37,279 bases of DNA, taken from the IMG/VR virus record IMGVR_UViG_2718217859_000009, one strand, 5' to 3'. Source of the DNA: a virus. Taxonomy: Duplodnaviria; Heunggongvirae; Uroviricota; Caudoviricetes. Of the stretch, positions 2,856-37,279 are shown one piece after another (the first letter of the stretch is position 1; every line of letters begins with the position of its first letter). Position numbers and translations under genes: made by a program. The notes under the pieces were generated by a model. It was given only the letters and a program-made list of their open reading frames with translations. It did no database searches and was not told where the DNA came from.

Positions 2856-3074
2856 TCAAAGAGAGAGCGCCACCTGTCCTGATTTCATTGGATGCGGCTG
2901 AACTGGATTAGACTCTTTTGGTGTTGCAATCGAACGAACAAAAGTTTCATGGGTAACAAAAGTATGGCTGCAGTTAATGTTCTGGCACTGGTTATAACGC
3001 TCTTTGGTCAATGAAGATACCTGAAAACTGCTGCGAGTATGGGCGGCACTTCCACACAGTGGGCAAATCATCAT
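2856..3074 (-). CDS. ogr: Ogr/Delta-family zinc-finger late transcription activator (equivalent to 186 B)
   Basis: MMICPLCGSAAHTRSS...YNQCQNINCSHTF: C-x2-C...C-x4-C zinc-finger pattern typical of P2 Ogr; the tabulated ORF has an N-terminal extension, true start probably at MMICPLCG. Confidence 0.8.
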   Translation of the reverse strand: MMICPLCGSAAHTRSSFQVSSLTKERYNQCQNINCSHTFVTHETFVRSIATPKESNPVQPHPMKSGQVALSL

Positions 3075-3164
3075 TTTTCGAGTTCTCCCCATTTTTGCTA
3101 AATTCACAACAATGATACCGTATTATTCCATTTTGCAAACTTAAAAGTTCTCCATTGCGAAGAA

Positions 3165-4265
3165 TCATTCCATTTCGAAATCATCAATCCTCACTTCAAG
3201 CTCCAGACTGGTCGTAAAACCGTTATCCGGGCTGACGGTATGTGTCAGAGTCGTAATGGTCCATTCCGCATCATCTATCGGCTGTTTAAAACCACTGACC
3301 TTCACAGGCATTTCCGTGTAGAGATCTGCCCGCCCTTCCGCCAGTTGTAGCGAGAATGACGCAACGCCACGTTGCAGGCGTTCCCACTGCATTTTCGCTG
3401 CCCGTTCAGCGTTGCTCCGGTTGGCATAAGTGCGATTAAGTACCAGCACGTTTTCATCCGTCCCCACCAGGTAATCGCCCTGCTTCGCTTCCGGCTCTTT
3501 CTTCTGCTTCTTAGTCCTGCGCTTACGCTTCACCGTAGTGCTTTCTTTCTTCGCGGGTTCGCGGGTATGCAACCAGCTGGCAATTACCCCCGTGTAAGCT
3601 CCGCGATCTGCCAGGGTAAAGCGGTGACTGTCGCCGTCCTTACGTGTGATAGTAATCACCGGCAGTGGTTTACCGCTGGCGCTTTTGCCCTGTCCCTGCC
3701 GGATGAATAACAGATTGCCATTTTTCACCGATGCAATGGCACCGTACTGGCGCGCCAGCCGCATCAAAAAACTGCCGTCACTCTCATTAGTCTGGTCTAT
3801 ATGCTCCACGGGCTTATCCGACAGGTCTTTACCCAGTGCCATCTTCAGCTTGTGACGTACGGCTATTTCCTTCACCACTTCCCCGACAGTGGTCTTGTGC
3901 CACGATTTTTCGCGGCGGGTATTTAGTGTTTCACGAAAATCAGCACTTCGCGCCCGGATAGTCAGGCGGTCCGGTGCGCCAGTGTGTTCAATCTCGTCCA
4001 CCGTGAATGCCCCTTTCGGGAAAAGCGGCTGCCCCTTCCAGCCCAGCGCCAGAGTAATGACCGCACCACGGCGCGGCAGCACGATTTTTCCATCGGCGTC
4101 GTCCAGCTCCAGATCAAGCTGGTCCGCTTCAAATCCCCGGTTATCCGTCAGCGTCAGCCCCATCAGGCGGTTGTCCAACACAGTGGTGATATCCCTGCCT
4201 TCAATACTGATGCTGAATGCCGGAGTTTTGTTGCCTTTGTTAAGCAGTTCAGAGCTGAAATTCAC
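3165..4265 (-). CDS. tail protein gpD (late control D family)
   Basis: 366 aa, position downstream of U and T; resembles P2 gpD; 4-nt overlap with U. Confidence 0.85.
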   Translation of the reverse strand: MNFSSELLNKGNKTPAFSISIEGRDITTVLDNRLMGLTLTDNRGFEADQLDLELDDADGKIVLPRRGAVITLALGWKGQPLFPKGAFTVDEIEHTGAPDRLTIRARSADFRETLNTRREKSWHKTTVGEVVKEIAVRHKLKMALGKDLSDKPVEHIDQTNESDGSFLMRLARQYGAIASVKNGNLLFIRQGQGKSASGKPLPVITITRKDGDSHRFTLADRGAYTGVIASWLHTREPAKKESTTVKRKRRTKKQKKEPEAKQGDYLVGTDENVLVLNRTYANRSNAERAAKMQWERLQRGVASFSLQLAEGRADLYTEMPVKVSGFKQPIDDAEWTITTLTHTVSPDNGFTTSLELEVRIDDFEME

Positions 4266-25653: not shown

Positions 25654-26655
25654 ATGGGTGGAGAGACTTCGGCTATACAACGAGTCGCGGGTAAGATTTC
25701 TGATGATATTTTCTCAGTGTTCAAATGGGATCGTGCCGCTAGAGCGGACATGAATTGGGATTGTTGCCAAGAGGCTCATTCCAAGAAAACACATCCAAGC
25801 GATGTTGTATTTTTCTACATAGATCCATATGAGGAGGAAATGGTCTATCTCAACACAGACCTCAAAAGCTATGCAGAAGGTACTATTGGGAAAAAAATAG
25901 TCGAGGGAGCTTTAACATCGCTTGCTTTAGCTACCGAATGTGCAAATGTCAGTGAAGAATGGCGATTGAAATATGTTCATGATGATTCTTTAGGTTATAA
26001 CGTAAGAGGGTTATTATTCTTATATAACCATGATAATTTATATGATAAAGACTTCTATGAGAATATTACAAAAAAATTAGATCACTCATCTATAAATTGC
26101 CCTCCAAACATCAAACTACATTTGCTTGACCCTTATAAAATATCAGATTTGATAAACATATCTTCTGACATAACTAAGTTAATTGGTTCAGGCAAACTTC
26201 CTCAACCTGATAAGTTCACATATTATTATCCAGATCTTTCCCTAACAAGAATAAAGCACCCTATTAATCAGACAACACCTGCAACAATTGAATTATTAAC
26301 ATCACCATACATTATAATAAAGCATGAGGCTTTCAGTTGGCTCAGGGATAAAAACCCTGAGGGATATGTTGTTTATTACAATCAACCGGGGGATTCAGTA
26401 GACGAATTCGTTTACTTCTTTGATATGTTATCAACTTATCAGATATTAACCGAAGGTAAACCAATCGTATTACGCCATTGTCACATTCACCCAAATGAAA
26501 ATGCCATTCATCATTTTGAAAGAGCGAAAAAGAAATACAGCACAGACTGGCTCTTAGGCGAGGATGAAAGACTTTTTCTTAAAATTGACTTCGACAAGAC
26601 AGACAAAATTGTTGTTGAATATAATCTTGAACAAATCGGCATGGAGCAACGATAA
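25654..26655 (+). CDS. hypothetical protein, gene 1 of AT-rich three-gene cargo operon (candidate defence system)
   Basis: 333 aa, AAGGAG ribosome-binding site, stop overlaps the start of gene 2 (TAATG); possible D...E-x-K nuclease-like motif (FFYIDPYEEEMVYLNTDLK), unverified. Confidence 0.7.
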   Translation: MGGETSAIQRVAGKISDDIFSVFKWDRAARADMNWDCCQEAHSKKTHPSDVVFFYIDPYEEEMVYLNTDLKSYAEGTIGKKIVEGALTSLALATECANVSEEWRLKYVHDDSLGYNVRGLLFLYNHDNLYDKDFYENITKKLDHSSINCPPNIKLHLLDPYKISDLINISSDITKLIGSGKLPQPDKFTYYYPDLSLTRIKHPINQTTPATIELLTSPYIIIKHEAFSWLRDKNPEGYVVYYNQPGDSVDEFVYFFDMLSTYQILTEGKPIVLRHCHIHPNENAIHHFERAKKKYSTDWLLGEDERLFLKIDFDKTDKIVVEYNLEQIGMEQR

Positions 26656-27734
26656 TGGCTAAAAAACTATATTTCGCAACTGATAAAAATATTTATGATG
26701 CATTACATCATAAAAGGATAACCGCTGCAAAGTTGCATGAATTATTGTTGAATCGAGGTGTGTTTTTATCACCAGAACTCGACAAGGAAATACTAATCGA
26801 GGAAATATCCAAACTTCCTCACGGATTTAATGAATTAGAACACATAAAAAAACTGGTCAAAACATATGACCCAAGGGAAAGCACTACTAGTGTGAGCTTC
26901 CAAACCTCAACAAATCAGGCCGAATTAAAAAGTGCTGCTGAAGCACTAAAAAAAACATGCTCCCCTAGTAAAGGTCAAAGCCTGAATATTGTAGCTAAAA
27001 AAGATGGCTCGCTTACAGTAGAATACAAATATGAAGAAATAGACCTGTCTAAAACTGCATTACGTCAGATCGACAAGCGGAATGTTATAATAGAACTTCG
27101 CCCTGGAGCTGACAAAGTTGAAGTACGTATGCCTCAAAACCCCGAGGCAAAAAAAGTTATTGAGAGCTTGCAAAACGAGCTATCTAAAATCAAGTCCGAA
27201 CCTATCGAGCGCTTCGAAATATCATTACTAGCAATAACTGATCCTACATTGCGAAGTCAGTTTTTTCAGGAATTAATGAATGGTCTACGCGGTTATGAGA
27301 CTGATGACGTAACAAAAGTCGAATTAAATCGCAGTACTGATGCTAGTGAGGATGAAGACAAGGAAGAAACTATTGATACCGGATTTGTTAAGAAAGCCGT
27401 CCTTAATGGTGAAGGGGTAAATAGTTCAGCTATATTTTCTCAACTACATGAGAAAGGTTATTATATCGGGCGTATTGCATGGTCTTCAAAGCCGACAAGT
27501 GGAATTGGAGACAGAATCAACGTCGAAGCATTTTTCAAAGACTCAGAAAAATGCTGTGACTTTGCCTATCAAATTAAAGGTATAAACAATCAAAAAGAAG
27601 ACGGTTTCAATGTAACCATTCGCGCGGCAACGGCACAAGAGAAAAAACATATTAGTGAATTAATTGAGTCCGCCGCTGAAAATGCCTATAATATAATAAT
27701 AGGATCAGAGGTGAACGAAGATGAAAAAGGTTAA
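26655..27734 (+). CDS. hypothetical protein, gene 2 of cargo operon
   Basis: 359 aa, Lys/Glu-rich, translationally coupled on both sides. Confidence 0.7.
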   Translation: MAKKLYFATDKNIYDALHHKRITAAKLHELLLNRGVFLSPELDKEILIEEISKLPHGFNELEHIKKLVKTYDPRESTTSVSFQTSTNQAELKSAAEALKKTCSPSKGQSLNIVAKKDGSLTVEYKYEEIDLSKTALRQIDKRNVIIELRPGADKVEVRMPQNPEAKKVIESLQNELSKIKSEPIERFEISLLAITDPTLRSQFFQELMNGLRGYETDDVTKVELNRSTDASEDEDKEETIDTGFVKKAVLNGEGVNSSAIFSQLHEKGYYIGRIAWSSKPTSGIGDRINVEAFFKDSEKCCDFAYQIKGINNQKEDGFNVTIRAATAQEKKHISELIESAAENAYNIIIGSEVNEDEKG

Positions 27735-28404
27735 ATGGCTTAAGTTAAACATACGGCTTGAGTTTGAAACAGCCGTTAGACGTCTTTCTCTTGATTCTTT
27801 TACAGAGGATAAAGGGAAAGGGTTCATTTTTGATAAAATACGCCATGATTTTGCAAATGGTCGCTTTGTCGAGCGTATTGTTTATCATGATAAAATATTA
27901 AGCTTTGACGGAAGCGAAACTACCGTTGAAAGAATCGAATATCGCACCACAAATTTTAGCGTGGCTTTAGACTCTCTTCCTGTAATGCAGATTACCAACC
28001 CACCCAGAACTTTAAAGCCTTTTTCGCAGGCTTTGGTAAAAAATCTTGGCTTAGGTGTTAGTTTGGAAGAAATTGACATAAACCCTATAGACTGGCTTAA
28101 TGAAATATCTTCAAGTGTAAATATCAATTTAACACAACTTGATATTTCAAGGGTTAGAGTTTCTGATTACGCCACAGCTAAAATGCAAATAATTGGCAGC
28201 AATGATCTTAGGAAGTATTATAAAGAAGAATTAGAGGGTAAAAAAATAAGAATTGACAGGCTTGTTTGCTCTGTTAATTCATTAGAATATTCCGGTAAGC
28301 TCAAGATCACCAATAGCGGCCTTGCTTATATTGATGTTAGAAATGAGAATGAGTTTACGAAAATCGTTTTTGATACGTTAAAAAAAGTCACCCTTCAATC
28401 ATAG
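27721..28404 (+). CDS. hypothetical protein, gene 3 of cargo operon
   Basis: 227 aa, start overlaps the end of gene 2 by 14 nt. Confidence 0.65.
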   Translation: MKKVKWLKLNIRLEFETAVRRLSLDSFTEDKGKGFIFDKIRHDFANGRFVERIVYHDKILSFDGSETTVERIEYRTTNFSVALDSLPVMQITNPPRTLKPFSQALVKNLGLGVSLEEIDINPIDWLNEISSSVNINLTQLDISRVRVSDYATAKMQIIGSNDLRKYYKEELEGKKIRIDRLVCSVNSLEYSGKLKITNSGLAYIDVRNENEFTKIVFDTLKKVTLQS

Positions 28405-28499: not shown

Positions 28500-28733
28500 T
28501 TAATGCAGCCAGCTATCGTCCTCCCACACCTTCTGCATAATTTTCATCACTTGTTTTCTTTCTTCGTCCAGTTGCAGTCCGGTCAGTTCCACACCGTTAG
28601 AGCTACCTTTGCGGATACGAATTACCGTTTTGGGATACAGGGGGCGCAGATTGCGGTAAAGCTCGGATTCAAGGGCGTCCAGGGTAGACTGGCTAATTTT
28701 CTGCTCTTTATCGATCATTATTTCAATGCGCAT
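28500..28733 (-). CDS. DinI-like protein (186 orf97-like)
   Basis: MRIEIMIDKEQKISQSTLDALESELYRNLRPLYP...WEDDSWL resembles DinI; GAGGTGA ribosome-binding site before the internal ATG. Confidence 0.75.
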   Translation of the reverse strand: MRIEIMIDKEQKISQSTLDALESELYRNLRPLYPKTVIRIRKGSSNGVELTGLQLDEERKQVMKIMQKVWEDDSWLH

Positions 28734-28743
28734 AAAAGTCACC

Positions 28744-28932
28744 TCAGCTGATGACATCCATTGAGCGGTTGTATTCGTGGCTTCTGATTTTTGCCATGAG
28801 TTCATCAGTCAATTCAGAAACCCACTGCAGAGCCAGCCCCTTCTCTTCATCACTACACTCACTAGCCGCTACAAGCTTAAGAAAAAAATCAATGCGCTGG
28901 AGCTTCAAAGACTCCAAAAAATAGTCCTGCAT
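28744..28932 (-). CDS. small SOS-controlled protein, possible Tum-like antirepressor
   Basis: 62 aa from MQDYFLESL with AGGAGG ribosome-binding site; LexA box in its promoter; position matches 186 tum. Confidence 0.45.
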   Translation of the reverse strand: MQDYFLESLKLQRIDFFLKLVAASECSDEEKGLALQWVSELTDELMAKIRSHEYNRSMDVIS

Positions 28933-28975
28933 TTTTCCTCCTATGACACCACAAGCAATACTGTACACATAACCA

Positions 28976-28991
28976 CTGTTTATATTTACAG
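28976..28991. promoter_or_regulatory. LexA (SOS) box
   Basis: CTGT-ttatattt-ACAG, a perfect CTGT-N8-ACAG match, about 45 nt upstream of the small ORF. Confidence 0.65.
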
Positions 28992-29085
28992 TATATAATA
29001 ATCTTACTGATGTAAAACGTTTTTTTACGTTCATCAGCCTGATATGCCTGGTATTATTAAGAGCACGAATTGTTAACCCGCGTAA

Positions 29086-33232: not shown

Positions 33233-33384
33233 TTTTTCGTAGATAGTTCTGCCAGCAATTCATCTTGTGAACGGCACGGATGCCAGCGTTTACCATCCTC
33301 ACCCATGATCCAGCCGTGACCGTAGTGCATTGCCGGACTTTGTTTTACCAGCAGCGATGCAAATGATGGTTCTTTCGTCAGCAT
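33184..33384 (-). CDS. hypothetical early protein
   Basis: 66 aa from MLTKEPSFA, GAGGTG ribosome-binding site. Confidence 0.5.
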   Translation of the reverse strand: MLTKEPSFASLLVKQSPAMHYGHGWIMGEDGKRWHPCRSQDELLAELSTKKWGNKWLLKALRRLFH

Positions 33385-33391
33385 AAGCACC

Positions 33392-33901
33392 TCACAGCAA
33401 ACCGAATGAAGCACCGAGGCCAGTCACGGTATCAACTGCATTCGCCATCGCAGGATTAGCCTGTAAACGGGCCTGCAATGAAACAGCGGCCAGCGCCATC
33501 AGTCGTGTTACAGAGTTAATGCTGCTGATAGCATCACGACGACCTGCACTGGTTTTTACATCGCCAGATACCGCACCTGCAGCAACACGCCCGATCTCTG
33601 CGGTTGCACTCATGACGTAATGCGGTAGTTTCTCTTTTGCCACCTCATTAATCGGAACACATGGCAGACAATGAATCTGTGCCAGAAAACCATCTACCAG
33701 CGTTGAATCTTCAGTCAGATCGGTAAGCAACCAAATTTCTGGTGCGGTTAATAAATGAGGTTGAGCTGGGTTCAGTTTGTTCCGCAGAATCTGCACATTC
33801 ATGCCTGCACGTTCTGCCAGTTGCACCAGATTGTGGCGCAGTGCGAATGCACGACAGGCTTCATCAAAATGTGGATGTTTGGAAACTTGGTAATCAAACA
33901 T
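33392..33901 (-). CDS. CII-like transcriptional regulator (186 CII family), or alternatively P2 gpB-like
   Basis: 169 aa from [19 protein letters not shown]... with HTH-like [17 protein letters not shown]; AGAGGTG ribosome-binding site. Confidence 0.6.
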
Positions 33902-33933
33902 GGTCGACACCTCTGATGTATCCCAAAATGGAA

Positions 33934-34155
33934 CTAGTTGAATACAACATTGCAATCAGTAAGTGCATCAACGGTAAGAGCAGCAAGGTTGATCATTACC
34001 TTTTCTCTTTTCTTGTCTTTCCGAAGGCGATGCCGAGGGATGCGACCGTCAGCCAGCATATCGTTAATTGTGTCGATTGAAAGACCAGTAAGTTCGCTAT
34101 AACGCTCAATTGTGACATGTGGCGTATTCAGGGTTATTGAAATGTTAGGGGTCAT
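33934..34155 (-). CDS. Cox/Apl-like excisionase and lytic-switch regulator
   Basis: 73 aa, first gene of the early lytic operon, HTH-like [22 protein letters not shown]. Confidence 0.6.
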
Positions 34156-34243
34156 GATGCAACATCTCCTATTGGCTTGTGGTGAGTCAGTTTTAATCGT
34201 GGCTTTAACTTCACATTTCGGAGAATAGGATCACAAATCGGTT
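34156..34243. promoter_or_regulatory. divergent immunity-switch promoter/operator region
   Basis: 88-bp gap between divergent Apl-like and repressor genes. Confidence 0.5.
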
Positions 34244-35179
34244 ATGTCAACACATGAAATCACATTTCGCCATGTGGACGAAAAAAAGAAATCCTTAATC
34301 ATGCAGAATCGCGGAGGGCAATCGGTTATAGATCGGATACTGAAAGCCTATGGTTTTTCTTCCCGACAAGCATTCTGTAATCACCTAGGTATATCGCAAA
34401 GTACAATGGCGAACAGGTATGCCCGTGACACTTTCCCTGCTGATTGGGTTGTTATCTGTAGCATGGAGACTGGAGTGCCGGTCGAGTGGTTGGCATTTGG
34501 CACTGATACCGAGAAGGGAAGCATTACAAATAATGCAGAAAAAAGTCACAACAATTGTGACAGCAAGCATCAACATCTCAATAGAGAACAAGACATCCAA
34601 AATGAGAACTCTTTTACTATTAACCAAGGTGGAAAAGCAGCAATAGAGCGAATCGTTTTGGCTTATGGATTTAAGACAAGACAAGCTTTAGCTGATCATA
34701 TTGGTGTATCAAAAAGTACATTAGCCAATCGTTACATGAGAGATACCTTTCCTGCTGACTGGATTATTCAATGCTCACTGGAAACCGGTGCTTCATTAAC
34801 ATGGCTAACCACTGGTAACGGGGCAATGTTTGAAAAGCCTCGAAACGATACTATCACTATCCCATATCATAAAATAATTGATGGATCTCTTGCTCAAGAA
34901 ACCTTCTTGACTTTTGACTCTAAGTTGTTAGAAGGAACCTTTCTGCAACCTTTAGCAGTATTCATTGATGAGGAAATATATATTGTAGAATCAAAATTTA
35001 ATGAAGTTACTGATGGCAAGTGGCTTGTGAATATTGAAGGGAAAATAAGTATCAAAGATTTGACTCGCATACCCGTTGGTATGGTTAAAGTTGTAGGCAC
35101 TAACGCAAGTTTTGAATGCTTACTTACTGACATTATCGTTTTGGCAAAATGTAAAAGAGTTTTTACTAAAAATGTATAA
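34244..35179 (+). CDS. putative immunity repressor with tandemly duplicated CI-like DNA-binding domain
   Basis: Two copies of ...R(L/V)(L/V)xAYGF(S/K)(S/T)RQA(F/L)...IS(Q/K)ST(M/L)ANRYxRDTFPADW(V/I)(V/I)xCS(M/L)ETG..., then a distinct C-terminal domain; AT-rich. Confidence 0.65.
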   Translation: MSTHEITFRHVDEKKKSLIMQNRGGQSVIDRILKAYGFSSRQAFCNHLGISQSTMANRYARDTFPADWVVICSMETGVPVEWLAFGTDTEKGSITNNAEKSHNNCDSKHQHLNREQDIQNENSFTINQGGKAAIERIVLAYGFKTRQALADHIGVSKSTLANRYMRDTFPADWIIQCSLETGASLTWLTTGNGAMFEKPRNDTITIPYHKIIDGSLAQETFLTFDSKLLEGTFLQPLAVFIDEEIYIVESKFNEVTDGKWLVNIEGKISIKDLTRIPVGMVKVVGTNASFECLLTDIIVLAKCKRVFTKNV

Positions 35180-35190
35180 AGAGAAACATC

Positions 35191-36135
35191 ATGACTGAAC
35201 CAACCAATAAAGATAGCGAAATAAAAAAACACCTATTAGAATTTCTTGATTCACAGTCTGAAAATATAGCAAAACACTTCTACTCTCATATAAAAGACTT
35301 AATAGAAGCAGGAGAGCTTTCTGAAGCTCATAATAACCTAGCGCTAATTGAAAAATACATAACTAGGCCACCGATGGATGAAGAACCCAATATAAATGAA
35401 AATAAAGCCAATAAAAGAAAAAATGTAAAATCACTTGAACCTAATAATTATGTAGAACATATAATACAATTAGAAGAACGAAACAGCATATTAACTCTAC
35501 AGTTAGAGCATTATACTCAGGATCTTAATAGAAAAAACGCAATAATCGAAAACAACGTAAAACAAATTAATTCATTGATTAGTGAAAATAAGGAACTCCG
35601 TAGCCAAGTACAGCAACAAAGAATCGATGATAAAATCCCCACCTATGTTAACGATGTTAAATCAGATCTTGGTAGTGATGACAAACATTTTATATTGATG
35701 TCTATTATCTGGTCTATTGCAGGGGTATTTTTTGGCTTCCTTGCAGTAGTATCTGCTTTTTTTACATTATACATGAACTTAGATTTAAAAAATCTCACTA
35801 ACCTTCAGTTAATATATATCTTCACGCGAGGATTAGTTGGAATCGCCATTCTTTCATGGCTATCATATATCTGCCTTAGTAACTCAAAAAAGTACACACA
35901 TGAATCGATCAGGCGAAAAGATCGTCGACATGCTTTGATGTTTGGTCAAGTTTTTTTGCAGATATACGGTTCTACAGCAACTAAAGAGGATGCAATAGAA
36001 GTCTTTAAGGATTGGAATATTTCAGGTGACTCTGCATTTTCAGGTCAGACAGAGCAACCACCGAGTTTTGCGTCATTTTTGAATACAATCAAAGACAAAG
36101 TTAAAGTAACTGGAAGTGATAAAGAAACAGATTAA
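35191..36135 (+). CDS. coiled-coil membrane protein (moron between repressor and integrase)
   Basis: 314 aa; N-terminal coiled-coil region (LQLEHYTQDLNRKNAIIENNVKQINSLISENKELRSQVQQQ) then two hydrophobic helices; very AT-rich. Confidence 0.65.
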   Translation: MTEPTNKDSEIKKHLLEFLDSQSENIAKHFYSHIKDLIEAGELSEAHNNLALIEKYITRPPMDEEPNINENKANKRKNVKSLEPNNYVEHIIQLEERNSILTLQLEHYTQDLNRKNAIIENNVKQINSLISENKELRSQVQQQRIDDKIPTYVNDVKSDLGSDDKHFILMSIIWSIAGVFFGFLAVVSAFFTLYMNLDLKNLTNLQLIYIFTRGLVGIAILSWLSYICLSNSKKYTHESIRRKDRRHALMFGQVFLQIYGSTATKEDAIEVFKDWNISGDSAFSGQTEQPPSFASFLNTIKDKVKVTGSDKETD

Positions 36136-36201
36136 TCATGAACATGTATGCTACTAAGTAAAAAATACATTGAATACTGTTTTTATATACAGTTAAATTT
36201 A

Positions 36202-36226
36202 GCCCTCTGATATGAGGGCATTTTTT
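36202..36226 (+). terminator. rho-independent terminator abutting the int start
   Basis: gccctc-tgatatg-agggc then tttttt, directly followed by ATG. Confidence 0.5.
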
Positions 36227-37279
36227 ATGGCAGTACGAAAACTCACCACAGGAAAATGGCTTTGCGAATGTTACCCCGCCGGACGTAGCGGACGCCGTGT
36301 GCGTAAACAATTCGCCACCAAAGGCGAAGCACTGGCCTTCGAGCGATACACCATGGGGGAAATAGAAGCAAAACCCTGGCTGGGCGAATCAGTGGATCGT
36401 CGGACACTGAAAGATATGGTTGAGCTATGGTTCAAATTACATGGCAAATCTCTTACTGCCGGACAGCATGTCTACAACAAGCTGCTGTTGATGGTTGACG
36501 CCTTGGGAAATCCCCTTGCAACTGATCTCACCTCAAAAATGTTTGCTCACTATCGAGATAAACGCCTGACAGGCGAGATCTACTTCAGCGAGAAATGGAA
36601 GAAAGGAGCAAGCCCGGTCACCATTAACCTGGAGCAAAGCTATCTAAGTAGTGTTTTTAGCGAACTATCCCGTCTGGGCGAATGGTCGTATCCGAACCCA
36701 CTGGAGAACATGCGAAAATTCACCATCGCAGAAAAAGAGATGGCATGGCTTACCCATGAGCAGATTGTTGAATTGCTGGCTGATTGCAAACGTCAGGACC
36801 CAATTCTGGCACTGGTAGTTAAGATATGCTTAAGCACAGGCGCACGCTGGCGTGAAGCCGTAAATCTTACCCGCTCACAGGTGACCAAATACCGAATTAC
36901 CTTTGTCAGAACGAAGGGGAAGAAAAACAGAAGCATCCCTATCAGTAAAGAGCTTTACGAAGAGATCATGGCGCTCGATGGGTTCAATTTCTTCACAGAC
37001 TGCTATTTTCAATTTTTATCCGTGATGGAAAAAACGTCTATCGTGCTCCCTCGCGGTCAACTCACACACGTTCTGCGCCATACGTTTGCAGCGCACTTCA
37101 TGATGTCGGGTGGAAACATTCTGGCCTTACAAAAAATTCTCGGACACCACGATATAAAAATGACTATGCGTTACGCACATCTGGCACCGGATCATCTGGA
37201 AACGGCGCTCCGTTTCAATCCTCTGGCAACGCTGCCAAGTGGCGACAAAGTGGCGGCAGCGGTTGGCATTACCCCGTAA
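36227..37279 (+). CDS. int: tyrosine integrase (P2 Int family)
   Basis: MAVRKLTTGKW... parallels P2 Int N-terminus; C-terminal R...HxxR...Y catalytic pattern (LTHVLRHTFAAHFMMSGG...MRYAHL); the tabulated ORF starts 15 nt earlier inside the terminator. Confidence 0.9.
   Translation: MAVRKLTTGKWLCECYPAGRSGRRVRKQFATKGEALAFERYTMGEIEAKPWLGESVDRRTLKDMVELWFKLHGKSLTAGQHVYNKLLLMVDALGNPLATDLTSKMFAHYRDKRLTGEIYFSEKWKKGASPVTINLEQSYLSSVFSELSRLGEWSYPNPLENMRKFTIAEKEMAWLTHEQIVELLADCKRQDPILALVVKICLSTGARWREAVNLTRSQVTKYRITFVRTKGKKNRSIPISKELYEEIMALDGFNFFTDCYFQFLSVMEKTSIVLPRGQLTHVLRHTFAAHFMMSGGNILALQKILGHHDIKMTMRYAHLAPDHLETALRFNPLATLPSGDKVAAAVGITP

Follow-up and report, generated by a model that had tools for sequence, protein, structure and literature searches.

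The gene considered in this work is the immunity repressor gene cI of a prophage in IMG/VR record IMGVR_UViG_2718217859_000009, a stretch of 37,279 nucleotides from a virus of the Caudoviricetes, which was analysed at its full length and is referred to below as the window. The product of this gene is a CI repressor of the phage 186 type, which has two heterotypic DNA-binding heads joined by a flexible linker, together with an oligomerisation domain that is conserved, and by comparison of its DNA with that of related phages the gene is a mosaic of two CI specificity classes, each of which also exists in the form of single-domain CIs. On balance, it is probable that this protein is a natural chimera of two immunity types, in which the first head (D1) would set the phage's own immunity and the second head (D2) would provide a second specificity. 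The original prediction had described an ORF of 311 aa, divergent from an Apl/Cox-like gene, much longer than 186 CI (192 aa) and containing two internal copies of a module with a common motif string. These observations are borne out: the ORF and the 73-aa gene opposed to it (33934..34155, - strand) are both present, the contrast in length with 186 CI is correct, and the quoted motif string is accurate. The gene and its parts, with the helix-turn-helix (HTH) domains and the C-terminal domain (CTD) of its product, are as follows.

34244..35179, + strand: cI, 311 aa, ATG start; 186-type immunity repressor with two N-terminal HTH domains followed by the CTD
34244..34312, + strand: N-terminal extension (aa 1-23, MSTHEITFRH...), common to the main clade of two-domain CIs and the D1-type single-domain CIs
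34313..34507, + strand: D1, first HTH domain (aa 24-88), recognition helix ISQSTMANRYARD; hmmsearch domain at 24-89, five-helix domain in the AlphaFold (AF2) model
34508..34621, + strand: inter-domain linker (aa 89-126), predicted to be disordered, hypervariable; predicted local distance difference test (pLDDT) score <50
34622..34828, + strand: D2, second HTH domain (aa 127-195), recognition helix VSKSTLANRYMRD; hmmsearch domain at 129-194
34841..35167, + strand: C-terminal beta-rich oligomerisation domain (aa 200-308); PF16452, Foldseek match to 2FKD

When aa 9-86 of the cI product are aligned with aa 114-191, the alignment has a score of 235 with 40 of 78 residues identical, whereas 500 shuffles gave scores of 26.8 +/- 4.5, with a maximum of 49. 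Pfam recognises the Phage_CI_repr domain (PF07022) twice in this protein (E 3.9e-58; cutoff 22 bits) and the Phage_CI_C domain (PF16452) once, at aa 206-304 (E 1.6e-26). The structure of 186 CI (2FJR) matches aa 133-308, viz. D2 together with the CTD (E 2e-28), and in a Foldseek comparison the CTD superimposes on that of 186 CI (2FKD) with a TM-score of 0.90 and a root-mean-square deviation of 1.7 A. An AF2 model, for which the input alignment consisted of 61 sequences, contains three folded units corresponding to D1 (24-88), D2 (127-195) and the CTD (200-308), and in this model, with a predicted TM-score (pTM) of 0.42, no D1-D2 interface or fixed arrangement of the domains is predicted. Canonical CIs of the 186 type have one N-terminal domain (NTD) per chain and are ~190-210 aa long, and the cI product, with its two NTDs and 311 aa, departs from them in this respect. 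In other respects (viz. the PF07022 NTD, the PF16452 fold of the CTD, the genomic context and a cluster of putative operators at the early lytic promoter pR) it has the features of this type. As the 186-type oligomerisation domain is kept, the cI product is unlikely to be a monomer.

The two copies within the gene are only 54% identical in nucleotide sequence and 31% identical at third codon positions, and therefore they result from an old event rather than from a duplication made during assembly. Due to the age of the copies, and to the recurrence of the gene in other genomes and phage records (112 E. coli genomes and the phage ST11-OXA245phi3.1; see below), an assembly artefact, by which the original prediction could have been refuted, is excluded. 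Two other assignments were considered for this protein and rejected. Relatives of cI carry the JGI label 'peptidase S24 domain', which is not backed by Pfam, where PF00717 (peptidase S24) found no match in the cI product; LexA chains resemble its CTD only as a distant fold, with 10-12% identity in Foldseek. A repressor of the P2 C type (a single-domain, direct-repeat binder of ~99 aa) shows no sequence relationship to it, the matches being to PF07022/PF16452 and 186 CI only.

Both HTH domains are under purifying selection. Non-synonymous divergence (pN) is 0.03-0.12 in D1, against a synonymous divergence (pS) of 0.56-0.90, and in D2 the corresponding values are 0.11-0.20 and 0.50-0.94. D1 is thus the more strongly constrained of the two domains, and its recognition helix is nearly invariant. 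In the D2 helix, none of the residues S156, S158, T159, R163 and Y164 varies among 26 two-domain sequences, and due to this and to the purifying selection on the domain D2 is in use, presumably as a second DNA-binding head. The linker has pN about equal to pS, i.e. it evolves in a near-neutral manner. In the N-terminal extension pS is only 0.08-0.65, which is unusually low compared with the 0.5-0.9 seen elsewhere in the gene. The DNA that encodes this extension also contains the -35 hexamer of pR and putative operator site 3 (see below), and the low synonymous divergence points to a constraint at the DNA level from the overlapping promoter and operator. Taken with the two PF07022 domains and the match to 2FJR, these results uphold the original description of the protein as an immunity repressor with two DNA-binding domains, here that of a 186/P2-like prophage.

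The two heads belong to different classes of CI. In a neighbour-joining tree of the NTDs, the D1s of the main clade (inclusive of the one studied here) are placed beside the NTDs of single-domain CIs of ~207 aa, the D2s interleave with single-domain CIs of ~198 aa, and the other groups of two-domain proteins carry unrelated D1s; two-domain groups whose D1 types are unrelated number at least three. The single-domain CIs resembling D1 (from Salmonella diarizonae, P0091/L092; K. pneumoniae, P0105/L093; and Buttiauxella, L076) have the helix SQSTMANRY and NTDs up to 83% identical to D1, and those resembling D2 (from Raoultella, L021; K. michiganensis, L015; Silvania, L014; and Citrobacter pasteurii, L083) have NTDs with 86% identity to D2 and the very same helix (VSKSTLANRYMRDTFPADWIIQC). 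A D1-type single-domain CI aligns from its residue 1, inclusive of MSTHEITFRH, with aa 1-74 of the cI product. For a D2-type single-domain CI, the alignment starts at its residues 4-8 (KYPNEIKINPNQGG) and covers the end of the linker, D2 and the CTD, and the last ~15 residues of the linker are homologous to the N-terminal extension of these proteins. The same alternation is seen in the DNA, where positions 33302-34201 (cII, apl and the pL side) match D2-type phages at 76-79%, positions 34210-34473 match D1-type phages at 70-74%, and positions 34622-34815 match the cI genes of the D2 type at 71-72%. The apl DNA of the window is homologous to that of D2-type phages and has no homology to the apl of D1-type phages.

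These patterns are most simply explained if a cassette consisting of the pR operators, the 23-residue extension, D1 and part of the linker (about 34210-34590) was derived from the ~207-aa class and was fused, with the frame kept, to a nearly complete cI of the ~198-aa class at its 5' end. The latter would have supplied the end of the linker (formerly its own N-terminal extension), D2, the oligomerisation domain and its own apl/cII flank. If, on the other hand, one NTD had been duplicated in place and had then diverged, as the term 'tandemly duplicated' in the original prediction implied, then the single-domain forms would be later deletions of one or the other domain. Homologous recombination between the repeats would readily produce such derivatives, and in the NTD of L076 a D1-like part gives way to a D2-like part at CS(M/L)ETG, a conserved motif. 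However, the D2-type single-domain CIs begin at an ATG of their own, which overlaps the -35 of their own pR, and their phages have their own operators at -42 and +17, arranged as in 186; the window has an apl flank of the D2 type rather than of the D1 type; and the presence of at least three two-domain groups with unrelated D1 types favours repeated fusion. A simple duplication in place is therefore an unlikely origin for this gene, whose D1 and D2 are heterotypic and represent two specificity classes.

The operators predicted at pR follow the type of D1. The promoter and the three putative operator sites, for which offsets are given relative to the cI ATG, are listed below.

34222..34250, - strand: pR-like early lytic promoter, sigma-70-like; -35 TTGACA (34250..34245), 17-nt spacer, -10 TATTCT (34227..34222)
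34211..34220, + strand: putative operator site 1, TCACATTTCG, offset -33, over the predicted pR start region
34231..34240, + strand: putative operator site 2, TCACAAATCG, offset -13, in the pR spacer
34260..34269, + strand: putative operator site 3, TCACATTTCG, offset +16, upstream of the pR -35 and within cI codons 6-9 (ITFRH)

This promoter has 10 of 12 consensus matches, reads towards apl and cII, and is in the same position as the annotated pR of 186. Exact matches to TCACAWWTCG are found only three times in the 37-kb window (34211, 34231 and 34260), all of them on the same strand and within 60 bp, where ~0.3 are expected by chance. The same TCACA cores occur at the same places in six other two-domain loci of the main clade, and the offsets of -33, -13 and +16 are identical in the three single-domain D1-type phages (from Buttiauxella, Salmonella and Klebsiella), which carry a different apl. 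Across the loci compared, the operators change with the recognition helix. Loci with the helix SQSTMANRY have on average 2.25 same-strand TCACA cores per pR region, whereas those with SKSTLANRY have none and contain instead 1.75 elements of the A type, CCCAAWTG[AG]G. In the two-domain group L087, whose D1 helix is 186-like (SSSTLANRY), the pR region contains palindromes of the 186 FL/FR type, TCAC-N5-GTGA. On this co-variation, the pR operators of the two-domain phages are best read as those of their D1 type.

Since phages with a single head of the D1 type share this operator layout, D1 alone would account for the control of pR. This bears on the mechanism proposed in the original prediction, according to which D1 and D2 of a single chain would bind, as an intramolecular pseudo-dimer, to both halves of each operator and would thereby define a new bipartite specificity. 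Site 1 (TTCAC-ATTTCG-GAGAAT) can be read in this manner, as a TCAC half followed by a GAGA-type half, it resembles the hybrid second pB site of 186 (ATTCAC-GAATT-GAGAAT), and the length of the linker would allow any half-site nearby to be reached. However, these sites recur at identical offsets in the single-domain phages of the D1 type, inclusive of the GAGAAT, which is also the pR -10 hexamer. Near the start of cI, where paired half-sites were to be sought, there are three same-strand TCACA sites beside which no second half-site is conserved, sites 2 and 3 lacking one and the bases after TCACA varying across the loci. Further, the D2 helices vary among the proteins of the main clade and the pR sites do not; the AF2 model has no D1-D2 interface; the linker is predicted to be disordered; and the oligomerisation domain is retained. 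An intramolecular pseudo-dimer is thus quite improbable as well as unnecessary, and the specificity at pR does not set the two-domain form apart, as it is common to the single-domain phages of the D1 type. It is more improbable still that D2 with the CTD is the working repressor and D1 an accessory head (e.g. one that senses a Tum-like antirepressor or acts as its decoy) or a non-binding vestige, because, even though D2 with the CTD is the part that aligns with 186 CI, and the Tum/DinI-like ORF with its perfect LexA box implies an antirepressor that must target some part of CI, the pR region has operators of the D1 type and none of the D2 type, and D1, with its nearly invariant recognition helix, is the more strongly constrained domain.

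If D2 has a specificity of its own, then its nature is indicated by the single-domain phages of the D2 type, which have no TCACA repeats at pR, but GTCCCCAAATGGGAAC at -42 and TACCCAAATGAGATC at +17. Both of these sequences correspond to the pR operator annotated in 186, TCTCCCAATTGAGAGA, when it is read on its reverse strand, and the motif CCCAAWTGRGA is found at pR in 186 as well as at -42/+17 in the D2-type single-domain phages. With at most one mismatch, this motif also occurs at +302..+365 in 7 of 10 two-domain loci, and it has only 3 matches in the whole window. Two candidate auxiliary elements lie within the linker codons of cI.

34594..34608, + strand: degenerate operator element (relic) of the 186-pR type, ATCCAAAATGAGAAC, a copy of YCCCAAWTGAGA, just before D2
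34545..34561, no strand assigned: perfect palindrome GTCACAACAATTGTGAC with two D1-type cores, a candidate FL-like auxiliary operator

The relic is a putative carry-over from the 5' end (the +17 operator) of the ancestral D2-type cI. The palindrome is the only TCACA-N(0-12)-TGTGA in the 37-kb window, and is located ~310 bp from pR and 48 bp upstream of the relic. In 186, FL is at +270, which is close to the distance between GTCACAACAATTGTGAC and pR. However, the palindrome is present only in the phage studied here and its near-identical relatives, and it is not conserved in other two-domain loci. A further candidate, an FR-like operator at the apl/cII junction (CCCAAAATGG, 33922), was rejected, as TCYCARAATGGAAC is conserved across loci of every CI type. 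At this junction (33920-33934) the window has TCCCAAAATGGAAC (consensus TCYCARAATGGAAC), which most loci of every CI type retain, a few outliers having it in weak form or not at all; it probably belongs to the pE promoter or the cII leader rather than to an immunity operator.

According to the reading favoured here, i.e. the chimera of two immunity types, the chains would dimerise or oligomerise through the CTD in the manner of 186 CI, and the D1 heads would bind to the three TCACA sites, all on one strand, around the start, the spacer and the -35 of pR, by which the lytic operon would be shut off and the phage's own immunity set. D2, tethered by the flexible linker of ~38 residues, would act as a second head with a 186-pR-like preference (CCCAAWTGRGA), binding auxiliary sites (of which the relic at 34594-34608 may be one) and/or operators carried by D2-type phages that enter the cell. 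In the latter case, one-way (asymmetric) cross-immunity would result, since pR has lost the D2-type sites while the repressor keeps the D2 head. The oligomeric state, the pairing of domains with sites and the cross-immunity are in this scheme what we infer from the comparisons. D2-type phages with the identical helix occur in the same hosts (Klebsiella, Raoultella and Citrobacter). More tentatively, and with some doubt, the scheme may be extended to a protein of true dual specificity. As its own pR would be only of the D1 type, the repressors of D2-type phages could not silence it, the lysogen could be immune to phages of both the D1 and the D2 type, and repeated heterotypic head fusions might be a general route by which such phages widen their range of immunity and escape that of their relatives.

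Several points weigh against this interpretation. The assignment of domains to sites is drawn from co-occurrence among phages that are related and hence non-independent, and the NTD tree is based on 66 residues and has no bootstrap values. The D2-type relic in the window is degenerate (CCAAAATGAGA), no clear D2-type operator is found elsewhere in the window, and scans for motifs like CCCAAATGGG gave, the relic excepted, matches at chance level. The specificities of D1 and D2 may also overlap, since the 186 record annotates two kinds of operator for a repressor with a single NTD, and some D1-type single-domain phages have A-type-like matches, with one mismatch, near +320 in cI. The pB-like region (3075-3165, - strand), upstream of the B/ogr homologue at 2856-3107, is ambiguous, as it has a TGTGA core at the predicted start as well as two copies of AATGG(GG)GAGAAC (3082 and 3147), which are present nowhere else in the window. 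These repeats are possible CI sites. However, the region is nearly identical in 4LV2017, the only other complete two-domain phage compared, and due to this they are assigned to neither domain. The direction of evolution is likewise uncertain. As the C-terminus of the L076 NTD resembles that of D2, the ~207-aa CIs of the D1 type could be deletion derivatives of two-domain genes.

Phage 186 is among the known systems closest to that described here. Its repressor (2FJR, 2FKD) is modelled as a wheel of seven dimers that wraps pR, with FL and FR as flanking sites (bioRxiv 10.1101/2021.10.29.466366; PMC3675496), and the window resembles it in having three clustered putative operator sites over pR and a candidate flanking site ~300 bp away. 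However, the cI product has two HTH domains per chain instead of one and 311 rather than 192 aa, so that a 186-like 14-mer of it would bear 28 heads. In addition, the pR sites of the window are same-strand TCACA repeats spaced 20 and 29 bp apart, whereas the annotated pR sites of 186 centre on a palindrome, and the window has an extra cargo gene between cI and int. The D1-type single-domain CIs (~207 aa) share with the cI product the N-terminal extension, the SQSTMANRY helix and the TCACA sites at -33/-13/+16, but in these proteins a single NTD is joined directly to the CTD, D2 is lacking, and their phages have another apl gene (78 aa). The D2-type single-domain CIs (~198 aa) share with it the helix of D2, a homologous apl/cII flank and an extension that corresponds to the end of the linker, and they differ in that 186-like CCCAAATG(G/A)GA sites, one at -42 and one at +17, bracket their pR. 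The window no longer has a -42 site, and its counterpart of the +17 site now lies ~350 bp from pR.

An engineered precedent is the lambda-186 hybrid repressor (PDB 7JVT), which also has a foreign HTH on the C-terminal scaffold of 186 CI and indicates that this scaffold tolerates head swaps; in that protein, however, the NTD was replaced and not added. For one chain with two DNA-contacting domains, a conceptual precedent is the mycobacteriophage immunity repressor of PMC9283540, which is monomeric, belongs to an unrelated family and has two domains of different kinds, and with which no homology is implied. Asymmetric, non-reciprocal immunity between related temperate phages is likewise reported for Cluster A phages (PMC6550527).

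The two-headed CI belongs to a known kind, the 186-type CI, and differs from it in an added heterotypic DNA-binding head; it would gain greater weight if the dual or asymmetric immunity is real. 186 CI is a leading model of cooperative gene control by a DNA-wrapping protein wheel, and a natural and widespread two-headed form of it raises the questions of how a wheel with 28 heads would choose its sites, whether one repressor may enforce two immunity specificities, and whether the fusion of heads is a common means by which P2/186-like prophages of E. coli, Klebsiella and Salmonella change or broaden their immunity. These questions bear on the competition between prophages in clinical Enterobacterales and also on engineering, as the 186 scaffold is already used in hybrid repressors.

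In regard to its distribution, cI is present at >=99% identity over its full length in 112 of 5,426 complete E. coli genomes, and at 98% identity in the deposited Klebsiella phage ST11-OXA245phi3.1. Two NTDs in proteins of 290-330 aa were found in 47 of the best 120 protein-database clusters (90% identity), from E. coli, Klebsiella, Salmonella, Citrobacter, Enterobacter, Kosakonia and Edwardsiella. A scan of contigs limited to one genome per species gave mostly single-domain loci, and these served as controls. All 47 of the two-domain clusters are labelled 'phage repressor protein CI' or similar, a generic name by which the two-domain form is hidden in databases. No description of a tandem-HTH or duplicated CI of the 186 type was found in the literature searched, which had most subscription journals outside its coverage, and a survey of P2-like regulatory genes from 2011 speaks of longer linkers or CTDs only; the two-domain CI is thus widespread yet apparently undescribed. 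In some records its architecture is further hidden by misannotation of the start codon. One example of this kind is L003 (MK416020.1), in which the repressor, as annotated in the deposited record, has an internal Met as its start (257 aa) and so lacks most of D1.

The genes neighbouring cI in the window are given below. The layout, in which cI is the head of the lysogenic operon and is opposed to apl and cII with int downstream, is the same in all related loci.

33934..34155, - strand: apl/cox-like excisionase-repressor gene, first of the lytic operon, 73 aa; phrog_575, E 9.6e-32
33392..33955, - strand: cII (CP76) lysogeny-establishment activator; PF06892, E 4.4e-42; likely true ATG at 33901, judging from the sequence
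36212-37279, + strand: int, downstream of cI

On the apl side of pR, the loci L076, L092 and L093 have direct repeats of ACTATTC ~21 bp apart in addition to their different 78-aa apl, and these repeats are probably the Apl binding sites of the D1-type single-domain phages. The window is without them and has a D2-type apl flank instead. Between cI and int is an ORF of 314 aa (35191-36135, + strand) with a GC content of 0.33, possible coiled-coil and membrane segments, and a match to phrog_2628 (unknown function); PADLOC gave no match and Pfam no significant match for it. Most related loci (L002, L084-L089 and L093) have in this slot a different unannotated ORF of ~290-385 aa, and L092 has two small ORFs, which suggests that the slot is a hotspot for variable cargo transcribed together with cI.

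A perfect LexA box, CTGTTTATATTTACAG, is found at 28976-28991 (within 28500-29034, - strand), in the 5' part of an ORF at 28744-29034 whose likely start lies further in. It is upstream of a DinI/Tum-like ORF (phrog_189, E 1.5e-30), an arrangement that resembles the SOS-controlled Tum antirepressor operon of 186, and the prophage is probably induced in a 186-like manner. A second perfect LexA-box match, CTGTTTTTATATACAG, at 36177-36192, is 20 nt upstream of the start codon of int (36212); two such matches are present in the window, where 0.43 are expected. At 25654-28404 (+ strand), three consecutive ORFs (333, 359 and 227 aa) match at full length the candidate defence models Hp1, Hp2 and Hp3 of PADLOC (PDLC03004-03006; E 1e-157 to 1e-248), and this trio looks like a three-gene anti-phage cargo of the prophage. 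Lastly, positions 1-2620 of the window are host flank, with a glutaredoxin-like ORF (1-258) and an ORF for a membrane transporter of 561 aa (935-2620), and the end of the prophage (attR) should be located between about 2620 and 2856.

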